From Deltaproteobacteria bacterium (GTDB lineage: Bacteria > Desulfobacterota > GWC2-55-46 > UBA9637 > GWC2-42-11), in assembly GCA_016223005.1 (NCBI GenBank), contig JACRPW010000044.1:627-64626 (forward strand): a DNA stretch of 64,000 nucleotides, given 5' to 3'. The notes under the pieces are model-generated. The model was not told the DNA's origin. It searched no databases and saw nothing but the letters and a program-made list of their open reading frames with translations. The position numbers and the translations under genes were made by a program. Positions 4,997 through 64,000 of this stretch are shown here, one piece after another (within the stretch, counting starts at the first letter, position 1; the number at the start of each line of letters is the position of its first letter).

Positions 4997-5087
4997 ATCA
5001 TCTCCTCCTGATTGTCAGAAAATGCTATTCCGTAAAATAGCGATTAAAAACCTCGCTATTTTGCATTTTCTTCTATGTTGATAAAAT

Positions 5088-25611: not shown

Positions 25612-25615
25612 TGCC

Positions 25616-45051: not shown

Positions 45052-45240
45052 ATGAAGAGGATTTATAGTCTGATTGTTGTATTATTGTTAGTATCTCCTA
45101 TGTTTCTTGCTGCTTCATGCGGTAAGAAGGCAGAGGAAACAAAGCCAGCAGAAACAGCAGCTCCAGCAGCACCTGCAGCACCAGCCCCAGAGGCAGCACC
45201 AGCAGCACCAGCCCCAGAGGCAGCACCAGCAAAGAAGTAA
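45052..45240 (+). CDS. Small Ala/Pro-rich lipoprotein (lipobox LAASC) built from 21-nt tandem repeats
   Basis: Signal peptide plus Cys lipobox. The unit PAAPAPEAA is repeated; the DNA repeats lie at 45175-45232. Confidence 0.6.
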   Translation: MKRIYSLIVVLLLVSPMFLAASCGKKAEETKPAETAAPAAPAAPAPEAAPAAPAPEAAPAKK

Positions 45241-45289
45241 CTTATATGCCGGGTATAAGATAGGGAAGGGAGAGGTAATTATTCATTCA

Positions 45290-46609: not shown

Positions 46610-46629
46610 GAATTTAATATAGCATAAAA

Positions 46630-46655
46630 CCTAAAAATAGACATTGATTTTTGGG
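46630..46655. repeat. 26-bp palindromic element CCCAAAAATAGACATTGATTTTTGGG, copy 1 of 3 (the others are 62357-62384 and 63898-63924). All three are promoter-proximal.
   Basis: 9-nt inverted arms around an 8-nt core. The three copies are near-identical. Confidence 0.85.
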
Positions 46656-46809
46656 AAAACCTGCCTGTCTGCCGTGCCAACGGCACAGGCAGGCAAGTTT
46701 GTCCAATAGCGAGGTTTTTAATCGCTACTTTACGGATAAAATTTTGATTTTGAAAATACGCAGGCAATATGCTATCTTGCAGGAAAACTGAATTATTGGG
46801 AGGAATATT

Positions 46810-48615
46810 TTGTCAGGGCATATTATAGAAAATCTTGGGGATTGGAAAAGGGACGTTTACTGTGGAGATACAACTGCGCCTCATATCGGGAAAGAGATAA
46901 TGCTTATGGGCTGGGTTCAAAGGCGGCGCGACCACGGGAACTTGATATTTATTGATTTGCGGGACAGGACAGGCATTGTTCAGGTTGTATTCAATCCTGA
47001 ATTTGAAAAATTAGTCCACGAAAAGGCGCATCATATAAGAAATGAATTTGTCATCGCAGTTAAAGGCATTGTTTCAAAAAGACCGGCAGGCACTGAAAAT
47101 CCTGATTTAAGGACAGGCGCGATTGAAGTCCATGTCAAAGAATTGAAGATTTTAAATGAGTCTCAGCCGCTCCCATTTCTTATTGAAGATGATATTGACG
47201 CTACTGAAAATATAAGGCTGAAATACAGGTATCTTGATTTGAGAAGGCCTGCCTTGCAGAAAAACCTTATCCTGCGCCACAAAATATGCAAGGTGGTGCG
47301 GGATTTTCTTTCTGATAAAGGAGGCTTCATTGAACTTGAAACGCCTATGCTTACAAAATCAACGCCTGAAGGCGCAAGGGACTATCTTGTGCCGAGCAGA
47401 TTAAACCCCGGACATTTCTATGCACTGCCTCAGTCCCCGCAATTATTTAAACAAATATTGATGGTATCTGGCTTTGACAGGTATTTTCAGATTGTCCGGT
47501 GTTTCAGAGATGAGGACTTAAGGGCGGACAGACAGCCTGAATTTACACAGATAGACGCTGAGATGAGTTTTGTTGACAAGGAAGATGTAATGGACATAAT
47601 GGAAAAACTCATTGCAGAGGTCTTTGAAAAGGCAGCGGATAAAAAACTTTGCCTGCCATTTCCAAGATTGACATACAAAGAGGCAATAAGCAGGTTCGGG
47701 CTTGATAACCCTGATACAAGGTTCGGGCTTGAGTTAAAGGATGTTACAGAGATTGTCCGAAATTCAGACTTTAAGGTATTCAAAGATGCTGTCCATAAAC
47801 GCGGAATTGTCCAGATAATCAATGCAAAAAACTGCGCTGAATTTTCAAGAAAGGAACTTGATGAATTAACAGAACTCGCTGCAACTTACGGCGCAAAGGG
47901 TCTTGCGTGGGTCAAAATCACAAAAGATGGCTGGCAGTCGCCTATTGCAAAGTTTTTAAAAGATGCAGAAAAAGATGGCATTGTAAAAACCACAGATGCT
48001 GTTATAGGTGATTTGCTCCTTTTTGCTGCTGATGTGCCGAAGGTCGTGAATACAACGCTTGGCAGAATCAGGCTCAACCTTGCTGAGAGACTGAACCTTA
48101 TACCAAAAGACACCTTTAATTTTGTATGGGTAACAGACTTCCCTCTCCTTGAATATGATGAAGAAGAAAAGAGGTTTGTTGCAGTCCATCATCCTTTCAC
48201 AGCGCCTGTAGATGAGGATACTCCTAAACTTGATGTCAATCCCATTGAGGCAAGGGCAAAGGCTTATGACCTTGTCCTAAACGGCTCTGAAATCGGCGGC
48301 GGAAGCATAAGGATACACAGACAGGATATTCAGTCAAAGATATTTGACAAACTCGGCATATCAAAGGATGAGGCAAGGCTTAAATTCGGCTTTCTACTGG
48401 ATGCCCTCGAATTCGGCACCCCCCCTCACGGCGGCATTGCATTCGGACTTGACAGGCTCTGCGCAATAATCTGCAATGCACAGTCCATAAGGGATGTCAT
48501 AGCATTTCCAAAAACCCAGAAAGGCACATGCCTTATGACAGAAGCACCATCACTTGTAGAAAAGAAACAGATGGATGAACTGTTTATAAGATTAAAAACA
48601 GAGGTTCCCAAATAA
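46810..48615 (+). CDS. aspS: Aspartate--tRNA ligase
   Basis: Class II aaRS motifs ([31 protein letters not shown]). TTG start. Confidence 0.95.
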
Positions 48616-48685
48616 AACATTCATGCCGACAAGTTGGCACAAAGGAGAATGAAAATATTATCAACCCCTCGGAGGGTATTTTCAA

Positions 48686-49324
48686 GTGAAAATCTCAGAG
48701 ATATTTTTCAGTATACAGGGGGAGTCAAGTTATGCAGGGCTCCCCTGTATTTTTATAAGGCTTGCAGGGTGTAACCTGCGATGTGTTTACTGCGATACGG
48801 TTTATGCACAAGATATGGAGCAGGGCTATGAGATGCCTATTGATGAGATTCTGCATGAGGTAAAAAAATTCAAATGCAAGATGGTTGAAATAACAGGCGG
48901 CGAGCCGCTTATGCAGGATGAGGCCGTGCCTCTTATAAATAAACTATTTGCATTAAAATATAAAGTTCTTCTTGAAACAAACGGTACAATAAGTTTAAAA
49001 GGCATAGACAAACGGGTTGTAAAAATCATGGATATAAAAACGCCCGGAGGCGGATTTGCACAGGATTTTATGGAAGGAAATCTAAAATATCTTAAAAAAA
49101 ATGATGAGATAAAGTTTGTTCTTATGGACAGAAACGACTATGAATGGGCAAAGGAAATTATAAAAAGATATTCCCTAGACAAAAAGACAAAGGTATTATT
49201 ATCTGCTGCCCACAAGAAACTATCCCTTGATAAACTTTCAAAATGGATTTTAGAAGATGGACTGCATGCAAGACTACAGCCGCAGATGCATAAAATTATT
49301 TGGGGAGAAAAAAGAGGAGTTTAA
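48686..49324 (+). CDS. queE: 7-carboxy-7-deazaguanine synthase QueE (radical SAM)
   Basis: CNLRCVYCDT radical-SAM cluster motif, and EIFFSIQGES N-terminus. Confidence 0.9.
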   Translation: MKISEIFFSIQGESSYAGLPCIFIRLAGCNLRCVYCDTVYAQDMEQGYEMPIDEILHEVKKFKCKMVEITGGEPLMQDEAVPLINKLFALKYKVLLETNGTISLKGIDKRVVKIMDIKTPGGGFAQDFMEGNLKYLKKNDEIKFVLMDRNDYEWAKEIIKRYSLDKKTKVLLSAAHKKLSLDKLSKWILEDGLHARLQPQMHKIIWGEKRGV

Positions 49325-49403
49325 TTGTTATATGTCCTTGCATAAGTAAGATGTCATTGCGAGGATTTTTGTTCCGAAGCAATCTCTAATTATTTGATTT
49401 TAT

Positions 49404-49479
49404 TGGAGCGGGCGACGGGATTCGAACCCGCGACCCCAACCTTGGCAAGGTTGTGCTCTACCAGCTGAGCTACACCCGC
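49404..49479 (-). tRNA. tRNA-Gly (anticodon GCC), CCA encoded
   Basis: The reverse complement folds as a cloverleaf: GCGGGUG acceptor, anticodon loop UUGCCAA, T-loop GGUUCGAAUCC. Confidence 0.9.
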
Positions 49480-49624
49480 TTAAAGACAGTGAATAGTTAT
49501 TAGTAAGTGGTGTTTAGTAAATACTAGACAAAAACTTTTTTACATTAATTCCTGTAAAGATTAATAATAACTTGTTTTAGAATTTATCATACTATATAAT
49601 GCTGTCAAGATTTTTTTCTATCAT

Positions 49625-50356
49625 ATGGATAAATCCCAAGAGGAAATTCAGAAACCAAAAAACTGGTTTGAGAGTCTGGACTGTGCTATAGAGGGTGCTA
49701 TCTTCGCTGTAAAGACTGAACGGCACATGAGGTATCACTATGTAATTGCTGCTGTTATCCTGCTGACAAGTCTTCTGCTGAATCTGACAACAACTGAATT
49801 TCTCATATTTGCCCTTTCCATAGTGCTGCTCTTATTTGCTGAGATGTTTAATACTGCAATAGAGCATCTGGGTAACATCATTTGGGAGAAACATCACATC
49901 TTCATAAAACAGGCAAAGGATATAGCAGCAGGTGCAGTTCTAATATCTTCTATTGGAGTTTTCCTTACATCTTATGTAATATTTTCAAAATATCTGTACC
50001 GTCCTGCTGAACTATTTCTAATAGGGGTAAAGACATTGTCAGGTCATATAGCAATTATATCACTGCTTTTCGTTTTTATTGCTGTTGTCTTCTCAAAGGC
50101 ATATTTACATAAAGGAAGACCGCTTCACGGGGGTATGCCAAGCGGTCATTCTGCAGTTGCATTTTCTCTGTGGGTATCAATATCGCTTATTACAGTAAAC
50201 CCTTTGGTGACAATTTTATCATTCGTTATGGCTGTCATGGTCAGCCAAAGCAGGCTCATTGGCCGCATCCATACTTTCTTTGAAGTATTTATGGGCGCTC
50301 TGCTGGGAGCAGGTCTCACATTTCTAATCTTTTACCTTTTTTCAAATACCCTCTGA
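49625..50356 (+). CDS. Fusion protein: prokaryotic diacylglycerol kinase (DgkA) N-domain plus a PAP2-family phosphatase C-domain
   Basis: The N-terminal half has the DgkA-like AIEGAIFAVKTERHMRYH...EMFNTAIEHL. The C-terminal half has PAP2 motifs KGRPLHGGMPSGHS...SRLIGRIHT. Confidence 0.7.
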   Translation: MDKSQEEIQKPKNWFESLDCAIEGAIFAVKTERHMRYHYVIAAVILLTSLLLNLTTTEFLIFALSIVLLLFAEMFNTAIEHLGNIIWEKHHIFIKQAKDIAAGAVLISSIGVFLTSYVIFSKYLYRPAELFLIGVKTLSGHIAIISLLFVFIAVVFSKAYLHKGRPLHGGMPSGHSAVAFSLWVSISLITVNPLVTILSFVMAVMVSQSRLIGRIHTFFEVFMGALLGAGLTFLIFYLFSNTL

Positions 50357-52026
50357 TGTCAAATAAATCAATAATAGCATCTGTTATATCAGGCACTATT
50401 ATGATATTTGCATTCCCGCCTTTTGATATATGGGTTATAGGTTGGTTTGGCATGGCGCCTTTATTCTTTGCCATTTATGATAAAAAGCCGTTGCAGGCAT
50501 TTGCACTGGGCTTTATCTGGGGCATTGTTTTTTTTCTCGGCACTGTTTACTGGGTTGTAAACTCAATGGTAAATTACGGTGGTGTGCCTGTATGGGCAAG
50601 TGTGCTGGCGCTTCTGCTTCTTGTAATTGTCTTAAGCCTTTACCCTGCTGTATTCGCTTATTTTACCTTTAGCCGTGAAAAGCATGCTTTTCACCCTTCA
50701 GCCTTTCGCCTGATTTTTATCCCTTTCCTCTGGGTCAGTCTTGAATTTGTGCGGACATATCTTTTTACAGGCTTTCCTTGGGTCTTACTTGGTTATTCAC
50801 AAACAGCATTCCTCCCAATAATGCAGATTGCTGATATAACAGGTGTCTATGGTGTATCGTTTTTGATAATCATGGTCAATGTTTTTCTATTCAATTGCGG
50901 ACTGCAGATTGCAGATTGCGGATTTAAAATTAAAATTTCTAAAATGGAATGGATTATAGTATTTTCGGTTTTAATCCTTGTCTTTGGTTATGGTCATTTA
51001 AGGATTGGACAGATTGATAATTTAACTAAAAACTGGAGGCAGATTAAGATAGGTATTGCCCAGGGCAATATAGATCAGGCGCAGAAATGGGACCCTGCAC
51101 ATCAGGAAGGAACGATAGATATTTACAGGCAGATTAGTATAGACATTGCACAAAATGAAAAGGACATTGACCTTATTATATGGCCAGAAACAGCCACACC
51201 ATTTTATCTTCAGTCTGATGAAAAATTCGGTCCGCTTATCTTTGATATAGCAAAAACTCTGGCAGTAAACCTTATTACAGGAAGTCCTGCGCATGAGTAT
51301 ACATCTGATGGTAAAACTATAAATTACTATAACAGCGTGTTTCTGATTTCAAAGCAGGGAGGCATTGTCAATAGATACGATAAAGTCCATCTCGTGCCTT
51401 TCGGCGAATATGTCCCTTTTAAAAGATTTCTTCCATTTGAAAAACTTGTTGCAGGTGTCGGGGATTTCAGTTCAGGAAAAAACTTCAAGCCCCTTGCATT
51501 AAATAATGATGATACATTTGGCATCCTCATATGTTTTGAGGCAATATTTCCTGACATAGCAAGGCAGCTTTTGAAAAATGGCGCAGACTTTTTAATCACA
51601 GTAACAAATGATGCATGGTTTGGAAGGTCATCTGCACCATATCAGCACCTATCCCAATCATTAGTGCGGGCTGTTGAAGGCAGGACATTTTTAATCCGCT
51701 CTGCCAATACAGGTATAAGCGCAGTGATTGACCCTGTTGGAAGGATAAAGGTTAAAAGCGGACTGTTTACAAGAGAAGGTTTAGTAGATACAATATCATT
51801 AAAAGAAAGGTCTTTCACAACATTTTATACCCGATATGGCGATGTGTTTGCCATTGGATGCATATTCATCTCAATAGTTATATTTATTACTAATGCAAGA
51901 AAAAGGGGGCAGACTTGCCTATTGACATTTGCCCTCTTTATCTTCTCTATCACCTTTTTTACCTCTGCCGTCCCCTTTTCTTATTTTTCTTATTGGTCCC
52001 CTTTTCTTGTTTTCTTATTATCCTAA
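50356..52026 (+). CDS. lnt: Apolipoprotein N-acyltransferase (CN-hydrolase). It carries an in-frame mini-palindrome insertion (FSREKHAFHPSAFRL) and a heptamer-repeat insertion (GLQIADCGFKIKI).
   Basis: Multi-TM N-terminal domain plus CN-hydrolase with E...K...C (ILICFEAIFPD). The repeats lie at 50666-50710 and 50894-50935. Confidence 0.88.
   Translation: MSNKSIIASVISGTIMIFAFPPFDIWVIGWFGMAPLFFAIYDKKPLQAFALGFIWGIVFFLGTVYWVVNSMVNYGGVPVWASVLALLLLVIVLSLYPAVFAYFTFSREKHAFHPSAFRLIFIPFLWVSLEFVRTYLFTGFPWVLLGYSQTAFLPIMQIADITGVYGVSFLIIMVNVFLFNCGLQIADCGFKIKISKMEWIIVFSVLILVFGYGHLRIGQIDNLTKNWRQIKIGIAQGNIDQAQKWDPAHQEGTIDIYRQISIDIAQNEKDIDLIIWPETATPFYLQSDEKFGPLIFDIAKTLAVNLITGSPAHEYTSDGKTINYYNSVFLISKQGGIVNRYDKVHLVPFGEYVPFKRFLPFEKLVAGVGDFSSGKNFKPLALNNDDTFGILICFEAIFPDIARQLLKNGADFLITVTNDAWFGRSSAPYQHLSQSLVRAVEGRTFLIRSANTGISAVIDPVGRIKVKSGLFTREGLVDTISLKERSFTTFYTRYGDVFAIGCIFISIVIFITNARKRGQTCLLTFALFIFSITFFTSAVPFSYFSYWSPFLVFLLS
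50666..50710. repeat. Second copy of the gtgaaaagcatgcttttcac mini-palindrome element, inside lnt and translated in-frame
   Basis: Same palindrome with cctttagcc / ccttcagcctttcgcc flanks. Confidence 0.9.
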
Positions 52027-52212
52027 CCTGTCTTCTAAATGTCAATAATGACAAAAATATTCTTGCTTTTAGCAATAATCTATCATATAAATTTTGTTCC
52101 GTATAATTCTTACTGCACTCTACACTTGGTATGGGTTTAAGTGTTAATCTGTATCAGGAGACAAGTCTGGAACGGCAGCAGCAACAAACAGTCAAAGGGA
52201 GGAAGTGAAGCA

Positions 52213-53796
52213 ATGAGGGTTCTCATAAGCGACAGCATGTCTGACAAGTGCGTTGAGATATTAAAGAATGTTTCAGGCATTCAGGTTGATGTCAATACAA
52301 AACTAAAGCCAGAGGAATTAAAAAATATTATAAAGGATTATCACGGCCTTGTTGTAAGGAGCGCGACAAAGGTTACAAAAGAGATTATTGATGCTGCGGA
52401 TAACCTTAAGGTTATTGGCAGGGCTGGGACAGGCGTTGACAACATTGACATAAATGCCGCGACAAAAAGGGGCATTGTTGTGATGAACACCCCGGGCGGC
52501 AATACAATAACAACTGCTGAACATGCAGTATCAATGCTCCTTTCCCTGTCAAGAAAGATACCGCAGGCAACAGCATCCATGAGAAAAGGCGAGTGGGAAA
52601 AGAAAAGGTTTGAAGGCACAGAGGTTACAGGAAAGACCCTGGGCATATTAGGTGTTGGGAATATCGGCAGTGTTGTTGCTGACAGGGCAATTGGCTTAAA
52701 GATGAATGTGATTGCATACGACCCGTTTATTTCAGAGGAGGCTGCTAACAGGCTTGGGATTGAGGTTGTATCATTAGACGCACTTTATAAAAGGAGCGAC
52801 TTTATATCTATCCATGTGCCTTTGACAAACGAGACAAAAAATATGGTGAATAAAGATGCCTTTGCAAATATGAAAAAGGGCGTAAAACTCATAAACTGTG
52901 CCAGAGGTGGCATTGTAAATGAAAAGGATTTGGCTGATGCGATAAAAAAAGGCATTGTCTCAGGCGCTGCATTTGATGTTTTTGAAAAAGAACCGACGCC
53001 AGCAGATAATCCTCTTCTGCAGATGGAAGAGGTAATCCTGACCCCCCACCTCGGCGCTTCAACATTTGAGGCGCAGGAGAGCGTTGCAATTGCAATTGCA
53101 GAGCAGATTGCAGAATATCTTTCAAAAGGCACAATAAGAAATGCTGTGAATGTGCCGTCTGTGCCTACTGAACTATTGTTGACACTTGGGCAGTATATAA
53201 CCCTTGCTGAAAAACTTGGTAGCCTTCAGGGGCAGATACTCAAAGGCGGGATAGAGGAGATAGTAGTTGAATATACAGGTGATGTTGCAAATTATGATGT
53301 TGCATCTGTTACCATATCAGCACTGAAAGGCGTCCTTGACCAGGTGCTTGACCAGCAGGTAAACTTTGTAAATGCCCCGTTTATAGCAAAGGAACGAGGC
53401 ATAAAGGTTATTGAAACAAAAAGTTCCAGAACAATAGACTTTGCAAGCACAATTACAATAAAGGTTAAGACAAAGGAAAAGGAGAATCTTGTTGAAGGCG
53501 CCTTATTTGGCAAGAAGGATTTAAGGATAGTTAGAATAAATGAATTCTTTATAGATGCGGTTCCGGATGGTTATCTGCTGCTCCTCCATAATTATGATAA
53601 ACCAGGGGTTATAGGCAATATCGGGACACTCCTCGGTAAAAGCAATATAAATATTGCAAGACTCCATCTCGGCAGAGAGTCTATCGGAGGTGAGGCTGTC
53701 TCTGTCTGGAATGTGGACACCCCTGTTTCTGAAAATGTTATGGGAAAACTTCTTAAACTTCCAAACATAATCTCTGTAAAGGTTGTAAGATTATAA
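52213..53796 (+). CDS. serA: D-3-phosphoglycerate dehydrogenase with a C-terminal ACT domain. The likely start is MRVLISDS. The listed ORF starts at 52141.
   Basis: 2-hydroxyacid dehydrogenase GxGxxG (GILGVGNIGS), with catalytic R/E/H residues. Confidence 0.9.
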   Translation: MRVLISDSMSDKCVEILKNVSGIQVDVNTKLKPEELKNIIKDYHGLVVRSATKVTKEIIDAADNLKVIGRAGTGVDNIDINAATKRGIVVMNTPGGNTITTAEHAVSMLLSLSRKIPQATASMRKGEWEKKRFEGTEVTGKTLGILGVGNIGSVVADRAIGLKMNVIAYDPFISEEAANRLGIEVVSLDALYKRSDFISIHVPLTNETKNMVNKDAFANMKKGVKLINCARGGIVNEKDLADAIKKGIVSGAAFDVFEKEPTPADNPLLQMEEVILTPHLGASTFEAQESVAIAIAEQIAEYLSKGTIRNAVNVPSVPTELLLTLGQYITLAEKLGSLQGQILKGGIEEIVVEYTGDVANYDVASVTISALKGVLDQVLDQQVNFVNAPFIAKERGIKVIETKSSRTIDFASTITIKVKTKEKENLVEGALFGKKDLRIVRINEFFIDAVPDGYLLLLHNYDKPGVIGNIGTLLGKSNINIARLHLGRESIGGEAVSVWNVDTPVSENVMGKLLKLPNIISVKVVRL

Positions 53797-53865
53797 AAAA
53801 AAGTTAAAGAGTTTAAGAGTAAAAGCAAAAACAGTTGAGGAGTTAAATACTCCTAATCCTAAACT

Positions 53866-54861
53866 ATGGTTAGTCAACTAAACATATCCCTCCCGCAGGG
53901 TGTCCGTGATATACTCCCTGAAGAGGCTGAAAAGGCAAGGCATGTTGAGGATGCTGTAATTTCAGTTTTTGAGAAAAATGGATTTAAGCAGGTTATTACG
54001 CCGCTTCTGGAATATCTTGATGTTGTATTGCTTGGATTGGGCGCTGAACTAAAGGACAAGATATTTAAGTTTGTTGAGTCTGTTTCAGGTAAAATAATAG
54101 CCATAAGACCTGACATCACGCCGCAGGTGGCTAGAATGGTTGCCGCACGGATGAAAGATTATCCGCTGCCGCTCAAGTTGTGCTATAATGAAAACATTGT
54201 CAGATATGATGACCTTCGTGCAGGAACACCTGTAGAACTCCGTCAGATAGGTGCAGAATACATAGGTGAAGACTCTTCAAAGGCAGATGCAGAGATTATA
54301 TCAACTGCCATAGAGGCGATGAAGAAGACGAAGGTAATGGGTTTCAAGATTGATATAGGGCATATAGGTTTTTTTAAAGGACTTATGGAGGATATTAAGG
54401 CTAACAAATCCATTGAAAAAAGTATCAGACGATCTGTGCTTATAAAAGACAGTTCGTCTTTAAAAGAGATACTGTCTTCTGTTAAAGATAGTGATTCAAA
54501 AAGAATCATTGCTGAACTGCCCTTTATGTTTGGCGGAAAAGAAGTTATAGGCAGGGTCAAACCTCTTGTGAAGGCAGAATCTGCCAGAAAGGCATTGGAT
54601 GATATTGCAAAAGTTATTGAGATACTCAAGAAGAGGAAAATGGAACAGTATGTAACCGTTGACCTCGGTGAGGTAAGGGGTTTTGATTATTATACAGGCA
54701 TAATATTTGAAGGCTTTGCAAAAGGTGTTGGCAAAGCACTGCTTCGGGGTGGACGATACGATAATCTCTTGGGAAAATACGGCTATCCATGCCCTGCAAC
54801 CGGTTTTGCAATTAATATAGAAAGTGTAGCGGCAGCAATAAAAAAAGAGAATGGGGTTTAA
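53866..54861 (+). CDS. hisZ: ATP phosphoribosyltransferase regulatory subunit HisZ (HisRS paralog)
   Basis: LPQGVRDILPEEA class-II HisRS-like N-terminus without an anticodon-binding domain. A short-form hisG is present at 63159. Confidence 0.85.
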   Translation: MVSQLNISLPQGVRDILPEEAEKARHVEDAVISVFEKNGFKQVITPLLEYLDVVLLGLGAELKDKIFKFVESVSGKIIAIRPDITPQVARMVAARMKDYPLPLKLCYNENIVRYDDLRAGTPVELRQIGAEYIGEDSSKADAEIISTAIEAMKKTKVMGFKIDIGHIGFFKGLMEDIKANKSIEKSIRRSVLIKDSSSLKEILSSVKDSDSKRIIAELPFMFGGKEVIGRVKPLVKAESARKALDDIAKVIEILKKRKMEQYVTVDLGEVRGFDYYTGIIFEGFAKGVGKALLRGGRYDNLLGKYGYPCPATGFAINIESVAAAIKKENGV

Positions 54862-56157
<1,296 letters not shown>

Positions 56158-56164
56158 TTGTTAA

Positions 56165-56255
56165 GGAGAGATGTCCGAGCGGCCGAAGGAGCACGACTGG
56201 AAATCGTGTGTGCGCTAATACCGTACCGAGGGTTCAAATCCCTCTCTCTCCGCCA
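56165..56255 (+). tRNA. tRNA-Ser (anticodon GGA) with a long variable arm, CCA encoded
   Basis: GGAGAGA/TCTCTCC acceptor, anticodon loop CUGGAAA, T-arm GAGGGTTCAAATCCCTC. Confidence 0.9.
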
Positions 56256-56348
56256 GATTGAGTTGAGAGTTAAGGAGTTATGGAGTTACTGTTTTTGTTT
56301 TTACTCCTAAACTCTTTAACTCCGAACCGTAGTTAATTGTGGTTAGTA

Positions 56349-56456
56349 TTGATAGCCGGGTCTTGCGCAGCGGTTAGGTTGCGAACCCCGCCAGGTCCGG
56401 AAGGAAGCAACGGCAGTAACTCTATTCCGGGTGCCGCAAGTCTGCCTGGCTATCAA
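56349..56456 (+). ncRNA. ffs: Signal recognition particle RNA (4.5S/ffs, small bacterial type)
   Basis: Conserved domain IV motif CCAGGUCCGGAAGGAAGCA. The terminal helix is gatagcc...ggctatc. It has the conserved position immediately upstream of dnaX. Confidence 0.85.
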
Positions 56457-56511
56457 TAATAACCACAAGATTATTTCAAATCTTAAATCTTAAATTTGAA
56501 ATTACAAAATT

Positions 56512-58095
56512 ATGTCCTATCTCGTACTTGCAAGAAAATGGAGACCACAGGTCTTTGAAGATGTTATTGGGCAGAGGCATGTCAGCCAAACCCTTCAAAA
56601 TGCCATTACATCAAAAAGGGTTGCCCATGCATACCTTTTTTCTGGACCAAGAGGCGTTGGAAAAACAACCGTTGCCCGTATCTTTGCAAAGGCATTAAAC
56701 TGTCTTAATGGCCCAGCCCCTGTTCCGTGCAATGAATGCCAGATATGCAGGGATATAACCCGCAGTTCCTCTGTTGATGTCCTTGAAATAGACGGTGCAT
56801 CCAATACCGGCGTGGATAGTATAAGGGAACTACGGGAAACAGTTAAGTATCTTCCTTCTATGGGAAGATACAGGATTTATATAATAGATGAGGTGCATAT
56901 GCTCTCAAATAACGCATTTAACGCACTTCTAAAAACCCTTGAAGAACCGCCAGCCCATACAATCTTTATGTTTGCAACTACCGAACCTCACAAGATTCCA
57001 AATACAATCCTCTCGCGGTGCCAGAGATTTGATTTTAAGAGGATACCGCTGAAAGATGTGCAAACACAGTTAAGGCATATTGCCGCATCAGAAGGCATTG
57101 ATATAAGTGATACCGCGATTTTTCTTCTGGCAAATGAGTCTGAAGGTAGCATGAGGGATTCCCAGAGCCTCTTGGACCAGGTCATATCATTTTCAGGCAG
57201 TAAAATCTCTGATGAAGATGTTATGAATGCCCTTGGTATCATGGATAGAAAACTTTTGTTCCAGTTTGCTGACTCCATCATAAAAAGGGACGATGAGACG
57301 GTTCTGAATTTAATTGAAAATATATATAACTTTGGGTATGATCTTAAAAGATTTTGCCAGTCGCTCCTTGAGTATTTCAGAAATCTTGTTGTAATAAAGA
57401 CAGTTAAAGATGGGAAGGATGTCCTTGATGTGCCTGATATTGAGATTCTAGAACTCCAAAAACTGGCAAAAGATACCTCTTTTTTAAATCTGCAAATGCT
57501 GTTTAACATCCTCTATCGCGGTTTTGAGGATGTTTCAAGGTCGGCACTGCCTCGTTTTATTTTTGAAATGACAGCGCTTCGCATGACACATATTGACTCA
57601 TCTGAATCATTGACAGATATTATTAAAAAACTTGATACCCTGTCATCAGGAAGCACAGGAAAAGAAGAACAGAAAGTAAAAGGTAACAACAACTTGGCAG
57701 ATGTTGTTTCTGATATGCCATATTCAAGTTCTAACAAGGAAATATCAGTTTTTGGTTTTAAATCGTCAGGCAGTAGCAGTGATTTGTGGAAAAAACTTGT
57801 TGCATTTATAAAAAAGAAAAAACCTGCACTGGCATCTCACCTTGAGTTTGCAGTGCCTGATGTGATTAATGAAAAAGATATTTCAGTAAGGGTCAAGGAC
57901 GGCCATTACTATACATATCTTGTCAACAACAAGGATAACTTTTCAAAACTGTGTGAGGAGTTCTTTGGTAAACAGATGGTAATTGAGATAAGGGCAGGTA
58001 AAGATGAAAATGAGACTGTAAGTGCCAAAAATGAAACTATGGAAGACCCTATTATTAAGGATGCCTTGAAGATATTTGGCGGAAGGATTGTATAA
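56512..58095 (+). CDS. dnaX: DNA polymerase III subunit gamma/tau
   Basis: AAA+ GPRGVGKTT, Zn module CNECQIC, SRC motif. Confidence 0.95.
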   Translation: MSYLVLARKWRPQVFEDVIGQRHVSQTLQNAITSKRVAHAYLFSGPRGVGKTTVARIFAKALNCLNGPAPVPCNECQICRDITRSSSVDVLEIDGASNTGVDSIRELRETVKYLPSMGRYRIYIIDEVHMLSNNAFNALLKTLEEPPAHTIFMFATTEPHKIPNTILSRCQRFDFKRIPLKDVQTQLRHIAASEGIDISDTAIFLLANESEGSMRDSQSLLDQVISFSGSKISDEDVMNALGIMDRKLLFQFADSIIKRDDETVLNLIENIYNFGYDLKRFCQSLLEYFRNLVVIKTVKDGKDVLDVPDIEILELQKLAKDTSFLNLQMLFNILYRGFEDVSRSALPRFIFEMTALRMTHIDSSESLTDIIKKLDTLSSGSTGKEEQKVKGNNNLADVVSDMPYSSSNKEISVFGFKSSGSSSDLWKKLVAFIKKKKPALASHLEFAVPDVINEKDISVRVKDGHYYTYLVNNKDNFSKLCEEFFGKQMVIEIRAGKDENETVSAKNETMEDPIIKDALKIFGGRIV

Positions 58096-58207
58096 AGATG
58101 TCTGATTACACAGATTACAAAGGCAGATTACGCAGATTAGAAAAGATTAGTTTTAAATCGGTGTAATCGTTTTTAAAAATCTGTGTAATCATTTATAGGG
58201 AGGATAG

Positions 58208-58519
58208 ATGAAGAATCTGGGTAATATATTGAAACAGGCACAAAAGATGCAGGAAAAGATGGCACAGGTTCAGCAGGAACTTGCTGCCAAAACCATTGAA
58301 TCTTCTTCAGGAGGCGGCATGGTTACTGCTGTTGTAAACGGCAAGCAGGAACTTGTATCTATAAAGATTGACCCTTCTGTTGTAAATGCCGATGATGTGG
58401 AAATGCTTCAGGATCTGGTTGCGGCTGCTGTAAACAGCGCTATAAAAAAATCACAGGAGATGATGTCTGAAGAGATGGGCAAGGTAACAGGGGGACTCAA
58501 TATCCCTGGACTATTTTAA
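58208..58519 (+). CDS. ybaB: Nucleoid-associated protein YbaB/EbfC
   Basis: MQEKMAQVQQELA...GGGMV conserved YbaB sequence. The dnaX-ybaB-recR synteny is present. Confidence 0.92.
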   Translation: MKNLGNILKQAQKMQEKMAQVQQELAAKTIESSSGGGMVTAVVNGKQELVSIKIDPSVVNADDVEMLQDLVAAAVNSAIKKSQEMMSEEMGKVTGGLNIPGLF

Positions 58520-58558
58520 ACTGTTTTTACCTTACCTTTGAGTTTTGCAATTTGATTT

Positions 58559-59173
58559 TTGAGTTATTTTTATATGGCATACTATGCAGAGCCGATAATG
58601 AGGCTTGTTCAGGAACTTTCAAGACTGCCGGGTATAGGAGAAAAGACCGCAACCCGTCTTGCAATATACATCCTGAATTCCTCTAATGGATACGCAGAGG
58701 CGCTTGTTAAAAGTCTTCTGGATGTAAAACAGAATATAAAGGCATGTTCAGTCTGTTTTAATATGACAGACAGGGACACTTGTTCAATATGCAGTAATAC
58801 AGGAAGAAATCATGAGATTATATGCCTTGTTGAAGGCATAAACGACCTTGCTGCTATTGAAAAGGCAGGCAGATATAAAGGCACCTACCATGTCCTGCAT
58901 GGCGTAATCTCTCCTTTAAAGGGTATAGGTCCTGATGATATAGGGGTAGCGGAACTGCTTAAAAGGGTTCATGCCGGAAATATTAAAGAGGTTATAATCG
59001 CAACAAACCCCACTGTTGACGGAGAGGCAACTGCCCTTTATATTACAAAGGTTTTAAAACCATCAGGCATAAAGATTACAAGGCTCGCAACAGGCATCCC
59101 AATGGGAAGCGATATTGAATATATAGATAGTGCAACACTTAGCATGGCAATAGATGGAAGAAGGGAGATATGA
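58559..59173 (+). CDS. recR: Recombination protein RecR
   Basis: HhH LPGIGEKTA, C4 zinc finger CSVC...CSIC, Toprim. Confidence 0.95.
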   Translation: MSYFYMAYYAEPIMRLVQELSRLPGIGEKTATRLAIYILNSSNGYAEALVKSLLDVKQNIKACSVCFNMTDRDTCSICSNTGRNHEIICLVEGINDLAAIEKAGRYKGTYHVLHGVISPLKGIGPDDIGVAELLKRVHAGNIKEVIIATNPTVDGEATALYITKVLKPSGIKITRLATGIPMGSDIEYIDSATLSMAIDGRREI

Positions 59174-59176
59174 TTT

Positions 59177-59764
59177 TTGGAGGTTGAAATGGCTGATTAC
59201 ACTGAGATAAGATGGCATGGAAGGGCACAGCAGGGCATTGTTACTGCGGCAAAGGTTCTGGCAGAGGCGGCATTATCCAGCGGCAAGTATGTTCAGGCGT
59301 TTCCTGAGTTTGGTCCAGAAAGGATGGGCGCTCCTGTCAGGGCGTTCAACAGGATTTCATCGGAACCAATCAGGATTCATGGACAGGTAACCAATCCCCA
59401 TATCATCCTTATAGTTGACCCAACCCTTATAGGCACGGTAAATGTTACAGAAGGCACACCTCAAAATGCAGTATTTATCATAAATACCCCGAAACTACCT
59501 GATGAGATGAAGAAAAAACTATCACTGGGCAGCCATGCAAGGGTCTTCACCATTGATGCAAGCAAGATATCAATTGAGTGTATCGGCAGGCATATACCGA
59601 ATACGCCGATGCTCGGTGCAATGGCAAAGGCAACAGGTGTAGTAAGTGTTGATGCACTGACAGATGACTTTAAAGAGAACTATGCAAAGAAATATAGTCC
59701 AAAGGTTATAGAGGGAAATATTAGTGCTATCAGGCATGGCTTTGAACAGGTAAGGGAGGGCTAG
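59177..59764 (+). CDS. porC: Pyruvate:ferredoxin (2-oxoacid) oxidoreductase gamma subunit
   Basis: EIRWHGRAQQGIVTAAKVLAEAA, the canonical gamma-subunit N-terminus. Confidence 0.88.
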   Translation: MEVEMADYTEIRWHGRAQQGIVTAAKVLAEAALSSGKYVQAFPEFGPERMGAPVRAFNRISSEPIRIHGQVTNPHIILIVDPTLIGTVNVTEGTPQNAVFIINTPKLPDEMKKKLSLGSHARVFTIDASKISIECIGRHIPNTPMLGAMAKATGVVSVDALTDDFKENYAKKYSPKVIEGNISAIRHGFEQVREG

Positions 59765-59897
59765 ACGACATTCTGCGAATGTCGAATTGTAAATTGAAGA
59801 TTGAAAATTGGGAATTTGAAAATGTTTATAAAATTTAAAATCTAATATTTACAATTTTCATTTTACAATTTGAGCGAAGCGAACAAAGGGAGGGCTG

Positions 59898-60197
59898 ATG
59901 AAAAGGGGCTGGAAAGAGACGCCAATAAGGGGCATTATACTTGAGGCAGGCAGTTCCCATGATTATGCAACAGGCGGATGGCGGAAAATAAAGCCTGTCC
60001 TTGACAGTGCAAAGTGTATAGACTGTATGCTCTGCTGGGTCTTCTGCCCTGATTCTGCTGTTATAGTTGAAAATGGAAAGATGCTCGGCTTTGACCTTGA
60101 ACACTGCAAAGGGTGCGGTATATGTGCAGAGGAATGTCCTGACAAGGTCAAGGCAATCACAATGCTTGCAGAGGAAGAAGAGGAGGAGATAGCATGA
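59898..60197 (+). CDS. porD: Pyruvate:ferredoxin oxidoreductase delta subunit (2x[4Fe-4S] ferredoxin)
   Basis: CIDCMLCWVFCP and CKGCGICAEECP cluster motifs. Confidence 0.88.
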   Translation: MKRGWKETPIRGIILEAGSSHDYATGGWRKIKPVLDSAKCIDCMLCWVFCPDSAVIVENGKMLGFDLEHCKGCGICAEECPDKVKAITMLAEEEEEEIA

Positions 60198-61396
60198 CTG
60201 CAGAAAAAAAGGCTAAATGCTCTACAGGGCTTACAGGAAACATCGCTGTTGCCTATGCAATGAAGCAAATCAACCCTGATGTAGTCGCAGCGTATCCCAT
60301 AACCCCTTCAACAACTGTTGTAGAAGAATTTTCCAGTTATGTTGCAGATGGCGCTGTTACCACAGAATTAATTACAGTTGAAAGCGAGCATTCTGCTATG
60401 AGCGCATGCATAGGCGCTGCTGCGGCAGGCGCAAGGGTTATGACAGCCACTTCTTCGCAGGGTCTTGCACTTATGTGGGAGATGCTTTATATCGCATCGG
60501 GCATGAGGCTTCCTATTGTTATGACATGCGTGAATAGGGCATTGTCAGCGCCTTTAAATATCCACTGCGACCATTCTGATTCAATGGGCGCAAGGGATTC
60601 GGGCTGGATTCAACTTTATTCAGAGACTGTTCAGGAGGCATACGATAATGTCGTACAGGCTGTAAGGATTGCAGAGCATGGGAATTTGCTGCTTCCTGTA
60701 ATGGTCTGCCTTGACGGGTTCATCACAAGCCATTCCATTGAAAATCTCTGTGTCTTTGATGATGACACTGTAAAGGGTTTTATAGGTGAATACAAACTAA
60801 ATCAGCCGTCGCTTCTGGATGTTGAACACCCCACATCATACGGCGCGGTAGCACTGCCTGATTCATATATAGAGAGCAGGAGACAACTGGCAGAGGCAAT
60901 GATAAATGCAAAGGATGTTATAACGGATGTTGCAAAGGAGTATGAAAAGGTGTCAGGCAGGCATTACGGACTTATGGAAAGGTATATGATGGATGATGCA
61001 GATGCGGCAATAGTCATAATGAGTTCTGCTGCAGGCACAACAAAGGTTGCTGTGGATGAGATGAGGAAAAGGGGATTAAAGGTCGGGCTTTTAAAACCAA
61101 GGGTCTTCAGACCATTCCCATATATTGAAATTGCGGATGCCCTTAAAAATATAAAGTCTGTTGCAGTCCTTGACAGGGCTGACTCTTACAGTTCATTTGG
61201 CGGACCATTATTTACAGAAATCAGGTCATCTTTATACGAACTTGACAAGAGACCAAAAATCATCAGCAGGATTTTCGGTCTGGGCGGCAGGGAATATGGT
61301 GTTCAGGATGCTGTCAAGATATTTGAAGAACTTTTGAAAATAAAGGAAACAGGCAAGGTTGATAAATTGTATAACTATATAACTGTGAGGGAATAA
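60194..61396 (+). CDS. porA: Pyruvate:ferredoxin oxidoreductase alpha subunit
   Basis: GNIAVAYAMKQINPDVVAAYPITPST, the typical alpha N-terminus. Confidence 0.9.
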   Translation: MTAEKKAKCSTGLTGNIAVAYAMKQINPDVVAAYPITPSTTVVEEFSSYVADGAVTTELITVESEHSAMSACIGAAAAGARVMTATSSQGLALMWEMLYIASGMRLPIVMTCVNRALSAPLNIHCDHSDSMGARDSGWIQLYSETVQEAYDNVVQAVRIAEHGNLLLPVMVCLDGFITSHSIENLCVFDDDTVKGFIGEYKLNQPSLLDVEHPTSYGAVALPDSYIESRRQLAEAMINAKDVITDVAKEYEKVSGRHYGLMERYMMDDADAAIVIMSSAAGTTKVAVDEMRKRGLKVGLLKPRVFRPFPYIEIADALKNIKSVAVLDRADSYSSFGGPLFTEIRSSLYELDKRPKIISRIFGLGGREYGVQDAVKIFEELLKIKETGKVDKLYNYITVRE

Positions 61397-62329
61397 ATGG
61401 CTACTTTAAAAGAACTTACAGGTAAAAAGGAATTATTTGCAGGCGGGCACCGTCTATGTTCAGGGTGCGGCATACCGCCTATAGTAAGACTGATACTTCG
61501 GTCAACCGAGCACCCCATTGTTGCATCAACTGCAACAGGGTGTCTTGAGGTGGGCACCAGCATATATCCATATACATCATGGAGGATACCGTGGATACAT
61601 AGTGCATTTGAAAACACTGCTGCAACCATCAGCGGGATTGAGACAGCATACAGGGCATTAAAAAAAAGAGGCAGACTTCCTGCTGATAAGGAAATAAAGT
61701 TTGTTGCATTCGGCGGTGACGGCGGCACCTATGACATAGGGCTTCAGGCTTTATCAGGTGCTTTGGAAAGGAGACACTCTTTCCTCTATGTGTGTTATGA
61801 CAACGGGGCATACATGAACACAGGTATCCAGAGGTCAAGTTCAACCCCATTCGGTGCAAACACAACCACATCACCTGTCGGAGAGGTAATACCCGGAAAA
61901 CAGGAATTCAGGAAAGACCTTACAAAAATCGTAATTGCCCACAATGTTCCATATGCGGCACAGGCATCACCGCATAACTGGAAAGACCTGAACAACAAGG
62001 CACAGAAGGCACTGGCAATAAATGGGCCTACATTTTTAAATATTATTTCACCCTGTCCGCTCGGCTGGTATACAAAGCCTGAAGAATCCATAGAGATTGC
62101 AAAGGTCGCTGTAGATACATGCTTCTGGCCGCTTTATGAAGTTGAAAACAGCATATTAAAGGTCAATTATAAACCAAAGGAAAAAAGAGCAATAGAAGAC
62201 TGGCTCAAGATGCAGGGAAGGTTTAAGCATTTATTCTTACCGAACAACAAATGGATGATTGACAAATTTCAGGAATATATCAATAAAGAATGGGAAAGAC
62301 TTTTAATGCTTGATGGAAAGCAGGTGTAA
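61397..62329 (+). CDS. porB: Pyruvate:ferredoxin oxidoreductase beta subunit (TPP-binding)
   Basis: CSGCG...GGDGGTYDIG TPP-binding motif. Confidence 0.9.
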   Translation: MATLKELTGKKELFAGGHRLCSGCGIPPIVRLILRSTEHPIVASTATGCLEVGTSIYPYTSWRIPWIHSAFENTAATISGIETAYRALKKRGRLPADKEIKFVAFGGDGGTYDIGLQALSGALERRHSFLYVCYDNGAYMNTGIQRSSSTPFGANTTTSPVGEVIPGKQEFRKDLTKIVIAHNVPYAAQASPHNWKDLNNKAQKALAINGPTFLNIISPCPLGWYTKPEESIEIAKVAVDTCFWPLYEVENSILKVNYKPKEKRAIEDWLKMQGRFKHLFLPNNKWMIDKFQEYINKEWERLLMLDGKQV

Positions 62330-62398
62330 GTTTCAGATAAGAAGGTTTTTTTAAGTCCCCAAAAATAGACATTGATTTTTGGGGAAAGTCAAATAACC

Positions 62399-62426
62399 TT
62401 GACAATACCATCTTATCTGTTACAAT
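62399..62426 (+). promoter_or_regulatory. Candidate sigma70 promoter TTGACA-16-TACAAT for rpsU
   Basis: Consensus -35, 16-nt spacer, near-consensus -10, ~70 nt upstream of the rpsU ATG with a GAGGAGGGGGTG SD. Confidence 0.5.
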
Positions 62427-62497
62427 CTGATATCCGATTTATGTGCCTAATATTTTTATTTTAACTATTTTTGCATAGAGGAGGGGGTGAAAAATGA

Positions 62498-62695
62498 ATG
62501 CCGGGTATTAGGGTTAAAGACAACGAGTCATTTGAGAGTGCCCTTAAAAGGTTTAAAAAACAGTGTGAAAAGGCAGGGATACTCTCTGAGATTAAAAAAC
62601 GGGAACATTATGAAAAACCGAGTGTAAAAAAGAAAAAAAAGACAATTGCAGCAAGGAAACGGGCTGCAAAGAAGGTTAAAAGAAGAGAGTTTTAA
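62498..62695 (+). CDS. rpsU: 30S ribosomal protein S21
   Basis: [21 protein letters not shown], highly conserved S21. Confidence 0.95.
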
Positions 62696-62697
62696 AG

Positions 62698-63162
62698 ATG
62701 CCGCTAAGAGAAGATTTGATAAATCAGATGAATCAGGCTGCAAAGTCACAGAATAAAGGGAAACTTGGAACATTACGGTTTATTCTTGCAGCAGTAAAAA
62801 ACAAAGAAATAGAACTTAAGAAAAGGGAAAGCGGACTATCTGACGAGGAGATTATTTATGTAATCTCCAGCATGATAAAGCAGAGGCTTGATTCTATTGA
62901 GCAGTTTCAAAAAGGGGGGCGTGAGGACCTTGTCCAAAAGGAATTAGCAGAACTTGCTATCCTTAAAACATTCATGCCCCCTCAACTCTCCAGAGAAGAG
63001 GTAATAACAATTGTCGAGCAAACTGCAGTCAATATAAATGCAGCAGGACTTCGCGACATGGGAAGGCTTATGAAAGAGGTAATGCCAAAACTTATCGGCA
63101 AGGCAGATGGGAAATTGATAAGTGATGCAGTAAAAGAGGTGCTAGCTTCATTGCAGCATTAA
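62698..63162 (+). CDS. yqeY: GatB/YqeY domain protein
   Basis: YqeY-family sequence immediately after rpsU, the conserved pairing. Confidence 0.8.
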   Translation: MPLREDLINQMNQAAKSQNKGKLGTLRFILAAVKNKEIELKKRESGLSDEEIIYVISSMIKQRLDSIEQFQKGGREDLVQKELAELAILKTFMPPQLSREEVITIVEQTAVNINAAGLRDMGRLMKEVMPKLIGKADGKLISDAVKEVLASLQH

Positions 63163-63821
63163 CCGCCAATCACAGTTTCTAACCCTTCTATAATCTCTTT
63201 TATCCGTTCTGGCTTTATTTTCAAGGATGCCCTATTTACAATAAGTTTACTTGTAACCCTCATGATTTCTTCAACCTCAACAAGACCATTCTTCTTGAGT
63301 GTCTCACCTGTTGATACAAGGTCAACAATCCTTTCAGACAAACCAAGTATCGGTGCAAGCTCAATTGAACCATAAAGTTTTATAATATCAACCTGAATGC
63401 CTTTATCTAAAAAATATTTGAGCGTAATATTTGGATATTTGGTTGCTACCCTTATATGTGTCCAGTGGTGAGGATTATCCTTTTTGCCAAGTTCCTTTGG
63501 CTCTGCAACTATCATTTTGCAAAAGCCTATGCCCATATCAATGGGTTCGTAGACATCCCTGCCCTGTTCAAGGAGAACATCCCTGCCGACTATACCCATG
63601 TCTGCAGCACCGTATTCAACATAGGTCGGCACATCCTGTGCCCTTACAACCATAAATTTCACATTAGATTTTTTATCTTCAAAAATGAGTTTTCTGCTGT
63701 CATCAAGTATGCCCTTTACCTGTATGCCAATCTTTTTAAAGAGACTAACTGCCTCTTTCATTACCCGTCCCTTTGGCAAGGCTATTGTCAATGGTTCTTG
63801 TATTTTCTTTAAAGATTTCAT
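63159..63821 (-). CDS. hisG: ATP phosphoribosyltransferase, short form (HisZ-dependent)
   Basis: LTIALPKGRV N-terminus, ~220 aa without the C-terminal regulatory domain. Confidence 0.92.
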   Translation of the reverse strand: MKSLKKIQEPLTIALPKGRVMKEAVSLFKKIGIQVKGILDDSRKLIFEDKKSNVKFMVVRAQDVPTYVEYGAADMGIVGRDVLLEQGRDVYEPIDMGIGFCKMIVAEPKELGKKDNPHHWTHIRVATKYPNITLKYFLDKGIQVDIIKLYGSIELAPILGLSERIVDLVSTGETLKKNGLVEVEEIMRVTSKLIVNRASLKIKPERIKEIIEGLETVIGG

Positions 63822-64000
63822 ATCTGTATTATTTGAGTATTAGTTGAGTGTGTAATTTAGCATGGTAGTGTCGTATTGTCAATCAATTGGAAAACCACCC
63901 AAAAATAGACATTGATTTTTGGGGAAACCACTGTAATTTAAAAATTTATGCATATTTATGTTGACTAGGATTGTTAAAAGTTGTATTAAATAGTTGTTAA

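Follow-up and report, generated by a model that had tools for sequence, protein, structure and literature searches.

The 64,000-nt stretch of Deltaproteobacteria bacterium contig JACRPW010000044.1 analyzed here (hereafter, the window) contains three copies of a 26-bp palindrome, designated P1 (CCCAAAAATAGACATTGATTTTTGGG). Copy 1 lies between rarA/MgsA and aspS, copy 2 upstream of rpsU and yqeY, and copy 3 upstream of hisG; the identities of these five genes were confirmed with Pfam (Table 1). Taken together, the results presented below indicate that P1 is very probably the left end of a transposable element of the miniature inverted-repeat kind (MITE) that has spread through the intergenic DNA of uncultured groundwater bacteria. 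On the + strand, P1 matched the window with no mismatch at 62358-62383 and 63898-63923 and with a single mismatch (CCT for CCC) at 46630-46655, and no match was obtained in 100 dinucleotide-preserving shuffles of the window. A repeat finder grouped the three sites into one 33-nt family (D8). The original prediction, made from the letters of the DNA, had described three copies of a 26-bp palindrome, which is confirmed by these matches; its coordinates for copies 2 and 3 pointed to the right sites but were 1 to 2 nt too wide owing to an extra C/G.

P1 consists of a perfect 9-bp inverted repeat (copy 2 has one of 10 bp) whose arms enclose an asymmetric 8-nt center that is conserved (AGACATTG). 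Copies 2 and 3 are solo units that are identical to each other over 28 nt, and copy 3 is also present in two Logan contigs (L121/L122) from the same organism, which occurs in the groundwater metagenomes SRR12113394/5. These two 1-kb contigs were the only ones returned by an exact-protein look-up with HisG, and the corresponding look-up with RpsU gave no match. Folded as RNA, P1 has a predicted free energy of -14.4 kcal/mol (shuffles, -6.0 +/- 2.4 kcal/mol) and of -13.8 kcal/mol in the opposite orientation, while its fold as DNA reaches -9.9 kcal/mol. An integration host factor site was also considered and set aside as imperfect: the minus strand reads AATCAA-NNNN-TAT, and when compared to the consensus WATCAANNNNTTR, the core fits but the TTR does not.

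Copy 1 differs from the two solo units in that it belongs to a complete 106-nt element (46630-46735) composed of P1, a 34-nt GC-rich hairpin, and a second terminal palindrome, P3, which is slightly degenerate relative to the P3 of the family. The region spanning positions 46626 to 46740 is predicted to fold into three hairpins (-43.4 kcal/mol, z = -5.6). All three window copies bear flanking direct repeats. Copy 2 is located 28 nt past the stop codon of the gene for a 2-oxoacid:ferredoxin oxidoreductase beta subunit. In addition to the three P1 copies, the 64-kb window holds one solo P3, located in the 91-nt spacer between a pmbA/tldD-like gene (5088-6581) and a DUF520 gene (4508-4996), 34 nt ahead of the DUF520 start codon. 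This solo P3 displays an A-tract/stem/T-tract layout, and no flanking duplication was seen at 5030-5064; the module could be what is left of a larger element, or it could serve as a weak terminator or attenuator.

Table 1. Coordinates of P1-family features and neighboring genes in the window
Feature	Position	Strand	Basis or remark
Solo P3 module GCAAAATAGCGAGGTTTTTAATCGCTATTTTACGG	5030..5064	-	Family P3 match; RNA hairpin -10.5 kcal/mol
rarA/MgsA	45290-46609	-	Pfam
Left target-site duplication ATAAAA, copy 1	46624..46629	.	Identical hexamer abuts both element ends
P1 copy 1 CCTAAAAATAGACATTGATTTTTGGG, left terminus of complete short MITE	46630..46655	+	Followed by central hairpin and P3 terminus
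Central GC-rich hairpin cctgcctgtctgccgtgccaacggcacaggcagg, short MITE	46660..46693	+	Fold of 46626-46740
P3-like right terminal palindrome GTCCAATAGCGAGGTTTTTAATCGCTACTTTACGG	46701..46735	+	Matches family P3 module
Right target-site duplication ATAAAA, copy 1	46736..46741	.	Same hexamer as left
aspS	46810-48615	+	Pfam
2-Oxoacid:ferredoxin oxidoreductase beta subunit	61397-62329	+	Pfam
Left direct repeat AAGTC, solo copy 2	62353..62357	.	AAGTC/CCC...GGGGA/AAGTC
Solo P1 copy 2, 26-nt palindrome plus GA	62358..62385	+	Sequence match
Right direct repeat AAGTC, solo copy 2	62386..62390	.	AAGTC/CCC...GGGGA/AAGTC
rpsU	62498-62695		Pfam
yqeY	62698-63162		Pfam
hisG	63159-63821	-	Pfam
Left direct repeat AAACCA, solo copy 3	63892..63897	.	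AAACCA/CCC...GGGG/AAACCA
Solo P1 copy 3, 26-nt palindrome plus G	63898..63924	+	Sequence match
Right direct repeat AAACCA, solo copy 3	63925..63930	.	AAACCA/CCC...GGGG/AAACCA

Distribution and anatomy of the P1 family

To place the window copies in a wider context, one genome per bacterial and archaeal species was scanned with the pattern CCYAAAAAT-N8-ATTTTTGGG, which gave at least 120 matches, the resulting counts being lower bounds. Family copies, recognized by the centers AGACTTTG or AGACATTG, numbered at least 57 in at least 13 assemblies, with at least 16 copies in NC_groundwater_1906, at least 8 in _1932, at least 7 in GWF2_42_12, and at least 6 in GWC2_42_11. Among the matches listed, these two centers are dominant, and the hosts are nearly all metagenome-assembled genomes (MAGs) of groundwater "Deltaproteobacteria bacterium", with a few Thermodesulfobacteriota MAGs; the other host MAGs are NC_groundwater _1018, _1931, and _1933 and RIFCSPHIGHO2_02_FULL_43_33. 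Among these matches, the family is restricted to a lineage of uncultured groundwater Thermodesulfobacteriota-like bacteria, and matches in other phyla carry unrelated centers, as expected of background due to chance. An exact P1 with the AGACTTTG center was also observed at positions 3715 to 3740 of L060 (DUFZ01000060.1), a contig binned as Candidatus Woesearchaeota archaeon UBA10194, for which a mis-binned bacterial contig seems a more likely explanation than transfer. No match to the element was found in viral contigs and plasmids. Similarly, Rfam, applied with gathering thresholds to the window and six element-bearing loci, returned no family match to the element; its only matches in the window were a signal recognition particle RNA and two tRNAs.

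In 42 copies, P1 constitutes the left terminus of a noncoding element in which the downstream modules and P3 always follow in the same orientation. The length of these composite elements ranges from 85 nt (L043) to 335 nt (L062). The consensus of P1 is CCCAAAAAT-AGACWTTG-ATTTTTGGG and that of P3 is GTAAAATAGCGA-GGTTTTTAA-TCGCTATTTTAC-GG, the element ending with ...CGCTATTTTACGG. The central part is a long imperfect hairpin, GAAACCTGC-AAG-TTGCCTGCCA ... TGGCAGGCAA-ATC-GCAGGTTT, the interior of which carries interchangeable GC-rich hairpin modules. The central hairpin of window copy 1 is a reduced form of this long stem, comparable to that of the 85-nt L043 element. We also considered that the nested GC-rich modules were simple insertions with duplications of their own and rejected this explanation, as the comparison of variants suggests module replacement instead.

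Two further observations touch on the modules and arms of the family. A 29-nt palindromic module (CTGGGGACAGATTTGAAATCTGTCCCCAC), identical to an internal GC-rich module of the L062 and L088 composites, is present at positions 34203 to 34231 of the window, where it belongs to the part of an oligopeptide-type ABC ATPase gene (33363-34409) that codes for the oligo_HPY domain. This domain has 74 residues there, compared to the 65 positions of its profile, suggesting that a small palindromic unit was inserted in frame into the gene, reminiscent of the Rickettsia palindromic elements. In related MAGs, a second palindrome family, CCAAAAAATGCA-NN-TGCATTTTTTGG, with similar arms and another center, was found in intergenic DNA near the MITEs (L006, around 3440; L013, around 2890; L096, around 4650) and may be another element recognized by a related enzyme.

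Insertion signatures and genomic positions

Of the 42 composite elements, 29 are immediately flanked by exact direct repeats of at least 5 nt, which abut the CCC... start and the ...ACGG end. The repeat length is 5 nt for 18 elements, 6 nt for 10 elements, and 7 nt for a single element, and the chance of such a boundary repeat is about 0.002 per element. These duplications all differ in sequence (e.g., ATTAA, AATGC, TTTCC, ACAGA, and TGATCT), and the reconstructed target duplications are 68% AT with no strong motif. The termini form imperfect inverted repeats (CCCAAAAATAG / CCGTAAAATAG), the left end (CCCAAAAATAGAC) being identical to the reverse complement of the right end (CCGTAAAATAGCG) at 9 of 13 positions and conserved across copies, and no open reading frame (ORF) lies between the ends. 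MITEs are defined as small (about 30-300 bp) noncoding elements with terminal inverted repeats and flanking direct repeats (PMC4133298; review PMC10969869). The combination of flanking duplications and terminal inverted repeats therefore identifies the element as a MITE and not as a repetitive extragenic palindromic (REP) sequence, so that of the dispersed REP-like element offered as an alternative in the original prediction, the dispersed repeat stands and the REP kind does not. The family has not been described previously and is an ordinary genomic parasite, not a gene-control site.

A filled and an empty version of one site could also be compared between two related MAGs that are collinear there, by anchoring on the 400-nt flanks, which are 90-95% identical. 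In L048, the site is occupied by a 255-nt block that includes the element; in L029, the two bases TT stand in its place. For the solo copies of the window, the empty sites are predicted to be TTTTTAAGTCAAATAACCTTGACA (62353-62390) and TTGGAAAACCACTGTAATTT (63892-63930).

Based on crude ORF-based gene calls, all copies are intergenic, barring two flags at contig edges. Nineteen copies lie between tandem genes in the same orientation as the genes and 13 in the opposite orientation, with another 8 between divergent and 6 between convergent genes. In seven cases, the stop codon of the upstream ORF is a TAG or TGA within P1, placing the element at the very end of the gene, and in L080 the element is found 14 nt after a tRNA gene. 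Several elements end 5 to 20 nt ahead of a ribosome-binding site and start codon in operon spacers and must consequently be transcribed within operons. Copies lying mostly inside genes or at 3' ends had been named beforehand as the arrangement that would argue for a generic repeat; this is the case in part, with respect to copies at 3' ends.

Orthologous sites were then compared between the window and related genomes. The closest relative recovered, the metagenomic L123, shares the rpsU-yqeY-hisG synteny (73% YqeY identity) and has no P1 upstream of rpsU or hisG; since its upstream neighbors differ and its spacers are unalignable, this indicates absence of P1 and not a precise empty site. Likewise, P1 is missing upstream of hisG in L104, whereas in L085 it occurs 22 nt after the rarA stop codon with none on the 5' side of rarA. 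Conversely, GWC2_42_11 harbors a full element upstream of a tRNA-Ser promoter where the window has a 7-nt spacer. P1 is thus not conserved at orthologous sites, which is the behavior of a mobile repeat and not of an operator. In the divergent hisG-uvrA spacer of L123 (3640-3680), another palindrome, GTTCAAGTTTAATTTTTAAAAACTTGAAC, was noticed roughly where the window has P1.

Solo units, promoter spacing, and alternative explanations

Among 10 solo P1 units, 5 or 6 are flanked, at 0 to 2 nt from the palindrome, by direct repeats 5 nt or more in length, including AAGTC and AAACCA at window copies 2 and 3, GTAAAA in L029, AAGTGT in L095, and GAAGA in L101, while chance predicts roughly 0.01 per element when three boundary offsets are allowed. 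Their right boundary varies (26, 27, or 28 nt), and hybrid units combining the P1 left arm with a P3-type terminus (e.g., CCCAAAAATAGATATTGATTTTTACGG) indicate that the P1 right arm and the P3 terminus are interchangeable. Both features fit an in-place loss of the element interior. Such a loss could occur by replication slippage between the direct repeats ...ATTTTTGGGG(AAAC) and ...ATTTTACGG plus the duplication, and in our reading of the sequences this model gives exactly the junctions observed in L029, L095, L101, and window copy 3. Full elements deleted in situ are the probable source of window copies 2 and 3.

The other possible origin of the solo units is that the 26- to 28-nt P1 is itself mobile, as an ultra-short MITE using its two arms as ends, which would make copies 2 and 3 independent insertions. 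In its favor, solo units are bordered by 5- to 6-bp direct repeats that abut the palindrome or lie no more than 2 nt away, window copies 2 and 3 share 28 identical nt, and the terminal bases of the P1 right arm match the left terminus in 9 of 9 cases, a match equal to that of the true right terminus. This origin seems rather unlikely, however, as the variable right boundary and the hybrid units with ...TTTTTACGG ends are both predicted by slippage, as are the four junctions that agree exactly with that model. Moreover, to our knowledge, the DNAs that DDE transposases are known to synapse are all longer than 26 bp. Slippage is the more likely origin of the solo units compared to transposition of the 26- to 28-nt unit by itself.

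A separate question is raised by the distance between the elements and promoters. The end of copy 2 precedes the rpsU -35 hexamer (TTGACA at 62399-62404, spacing of 16, -10 TACAAT) by 15 nt, and the same distance separates the start of copy 3 from the -35 hexamer of hisG on the - strand (63882-63877, TTGACA-17-TAAATT). For copy 1, it is the P3 end (46735) that lies 14 nt before an aspS -35-like TTGAAA at position 46750; P1 is separated from the start codon of rarA by 20 nt and from this -35-like hexamer by about 94 nt. The earlier statement that all copies are next to promoters consequently applies to copies 2 and 3 but not to the palindrome of copy 1. When hexamers matching TTGACA at 5 or more of 6 positions were counted outward from the P1-left and P3-right ends across the family, 20 were observed at offsets 12 to 16 compared to about 2.7 expected (23 over the 43 offsets 17 to 59). 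About 19% of element ends, including both ends and both element orientations, are located 12 to 16 nt from a -35-like hexamer, so that a fixed -35 spacing is a real feature but, on present evidence, a minority pattern. Credible promoters facing genes or tRNAs were found at L042, L087, L115, L022, L050, and L002, whereas the hexamers at L048, L034, and L072 face the wrong way or lie in coding sequence. Read outward, both termini have the sequence ...CTATTTT(T/A)(G/C)GG. The spacing could possibly be caused by a preference for AT-rich or bent targets just upstream of promoters, by selective retention, or by co-option of the T-tract termini, none of which makes P1 an operator bound by a regulator; effects on the rpsU, hisG, and aspS promoters, if any, would be a by-product of the landing place.

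Several readings of P1 other than a transposon end, or in addition to it, were weighed against these data. If the element ends had been co-opted as modules acting upstream of a promoter, either as T-tracts resembling an UP element or as a bend site, or if the transposase targeted DNA just upstream of -35 hexamers, this would account for the excess at 12 to 16 nt at both ends and in both orientations, for the distances of 14, 15, and 15 nt of window copies 1, 2, and 3, and for the T-tract at both outward termini. Either case nevertheless appears quite unlikely given that the pattern concerns only about 19% of ends, about one-third of which do not face a gene start, that many ends abut ribosome-binding sites or 3' gene ends, and that the reconstructed empty sites are merely AT rich with no strong motif. 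The operator of a dimeric transcription factor, as originally predicted, or a class I activator site near -62, acting on rpsU, hisG, and aspS/rarA, could be suspected from the perfect 9- to 10-bp inverted repeat, from the strong -35 hexamers exactly 15 nt from copies 2 and 3, which put the palindrome center at about -62/-63, and from the family-wide clustering of -35-like hexamers 12 to 16 nt from element ends. This reading is highly improbable and the predicted operator is not supported: the copies are identical over 26 to 28 nt, asymmetric center included, unlike the sites of a regulon; they are flanked by target-site duplications; P1 is absent from the orthologous rpsU and hisG promoters of L123, the hisG promoter of L104, and the 5' side of rarA in L085; and family members are also found between convergent genes, within operons directly ahead of ribosome-binding sites, and at the 3' ends of genes. 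In addition, the neighboring genes are functionally unrelated, and the hexamer beside P1 in L048 faces the oncoming gene and was already in the empty site (L029).

A function at the RNA level, as a terminator, an mRNA-stabilizing hairpin, or a processing site similar to REP or ERIC sequences in transcripts, is compatible with the hairpin being stable in either orientation, with the cotranscription of some copies located 5 to 20 nt before start codons in operon spacers, and with the A-tract/stem/T-tract layout of P3. The arms had been thought unlikely to form a stable terminator stem; the RNA hairpin is in fact fairly stable, but the U-tail is indeed absent. Intrinsic termination by P1 was rejected, as the consensus scan was silent at copies 1 and 2 and gave at copy 3 only a marginal match with a weak tail on the - (noncoding) strand. 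Since, in addition, the elements show no preferred orientation with respect to the genes around them (19 versus 13) and copies 2 and 3 lie upstream of the -35 hexamer, outside the predicted transcripts of the adjacent genes, a role as RNA is very unlikely. Finally, P1 is a short intergenic multicopy palindrome, and the mosaic modules of the longer element are reminiscent of bacterial interspersed mosaic elements (BIMEs), as could be expected from a REP/REPIN-type element mobilized by a REP-associated tyrosine transposase (RAYT, a Y1 HUH enzyme). However, REPs usually carry a GTAG head and a GC-rich stem, whereas the P1 arms are AT rich and lack the GTAG head, and the 5- to 6-bp target-site duplications are present; we know of no HUH Y1 enzyme that makes such duplications and of none seen at REPs. 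A REP-type origin is therefore hardly credible.

The MITE reading must itself be set against observations that do not favor it. The inverted repeats at the two ends are imperfect (9 of 13) as well as short, and 4 or 5 of the 10 solo units have no clear duplication. The junction of copy 2 is one A off the simple slippage prediction. At the L048 junction (GGG/element/GAGG, versus TT in L029), no clean duplication is seen, in keeping with divergence of the two genomes since insertion. In about 60 family loci of 8 kb and the window, a search for inverted end pairs up to 4 kb apart with a 5-bp duplication found no autonomous element, the largest being 335 nt, and an all-against-all BLASTP comparison of 381 ORFs of the family loci detected no multicopy transposase-like ORF. 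Lastly, MITE status alone provides no explanation for the clustering of hexamers 12 to 16 nt from the ends.

Given that no transposase ORF with matching ends was found in these loci or the window, we infer that the MITE is mobilized in trans, presumably by the DDE-type (cut-and-duplicate) transposase of an insertion sequence with matching ends, for which the inverted-repeat arms of P1 and P3 would serve as binding sites. A parent family making 5- to 6-bp duplications, for instance, IS1634, IS1380, or Tn3, would be a guess. IS1380 elements generate 4- to 5-bp duplications and have CC ends, and an assignment to IS1634 or IS1380 on the basis of duplication length and a C-rich end would be tentative. 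Duplications of 5 to 6 bp are produced by Tn3-family elements, their miniature derivatives, and IS1634-family elements (PMC4133298, PMC3281130).

Known systems, other repeats, and significance

Among prokaryotic MITEs are Chunjie, from Geobacter uraniireducens, and the Neisseria Correia element (CREE) (PMC10969869). Like prokaryotic MITEs in general, the P1 elements are small, noncoding, and present in multiple copies, and they have inverted repeats at their termini and direct repeats on their flanks; they are mostly intergenic, form long hairpins, vary in size with truncated copies, and are sometimes found within operons or beside promoters. No sequence similarity to described MITE families was detected where testable, the Chunjie ends not being among those compared. 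The duplication also differs from that of the Correia element (5 to 6 bp versus TA), and, as a further difference, each terminus of the P1 family is itself a local palindrome (P1 or P3). The Tn3-derived MITEs (TIMEs) share with the family 5- to 6-bp duplications at AT-rich targets, a nonautonomous nature, and a length of a few hundred base pairs. However, Tn3 ends are 38-bp repeats beginning with GGGG (PMC4133298), while P1-family ends begin with CCC/CCG and resemble each other over only about 11 to 13 nt, and TIMEs are usually single copy, whereas the P1 family has many copies per genome. The P1 family is consequently not regarded as a Tn3-derived MITE, its ends not being of the 38-bp GGGG type.

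The modular organization, in contrast, resembles that of the BIMEs of E. coli, which are clusters of REPs, and of the pneumococcal BOX, RUP, and SPRITE elements (PMC10969869), all built of interchangeable short palindromic units. In the P1 family, hairpin modules are similarly swapped or nested, and modules also occur alone, as with solo P1 and solo P3. The modules share no sequence with those of the BIME, BOX, RUP, and SPRITE elements, and the family has transposon-type ends and target duplications that REPs and BIMEs lack. The solo units are analogous to solo long terminal repeats (LTRs), in which one terminal repeat is left and the original duplication is kept after the interior has been lost between directly repeated ends. 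Unlike in solo LTRs, the repeats involved are only about 10 nt long, so that the process would be replication slippage or microhomology deletion and not homologous recombination.

Other repeats were noted in the same DNA. A repeat of about 185 nt is present at positions 1371 to 1555 and 2183 to 2368 of the window, 810 nt apart, with 86-98% identity (D2, D13, and D14), and holds GC-rich palindromic stretches such as CCCCGCCCACAGGGCGG. A 52-nt repeat with 88% identity (25562-25613 and 50661-50712; D12) is centered on the palindrome CGTGAAAAGCATGCTTTTCACC, its second copy being within an ORF (50356-52026). Short tandem repeats of 7 to 8 nt are frequent in the intergenic spacers of this lineage: TTCGTAA-type runs are present in the window at 15277-15327 and 15679-15715, and tandem GACTTCT, CAAGACT, and AGAAATT runs were seen in spacers of relatives (L104 1830-1870, L084, L106, and L048). 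Directly downstream of rarA, a 9-nt periodic GCAGCACCAGC-type repeat (45130-45230; D1) lies inside an ORF (45107-45655), where it encodes an Ala/Pro-rich low-complexity stretch.

It is unlikely, though less so than an RNA or operator function, that the transposase targets promoter-upstream DNA, perhaps bound by RNA polymerase or of the UP-element type, that the termini are retained as promoter modules, or that the solo palindrome is competent for transposition, in which case it would rank among the shortest mobile DNAs described. If promoter-directed insertion or co-option were true, the family would offer a tidy case of a bacterial transposon homing to, or tuning, promoters. For annotation, our results imply that the perfect palindromes found next to promoters in this uncultured groundwater lineage are to be read as transposon ends and not as operators. 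The P1 family marks recent insertion and deletion events and could thereby aid strain tracking and the checking of MAG binning.

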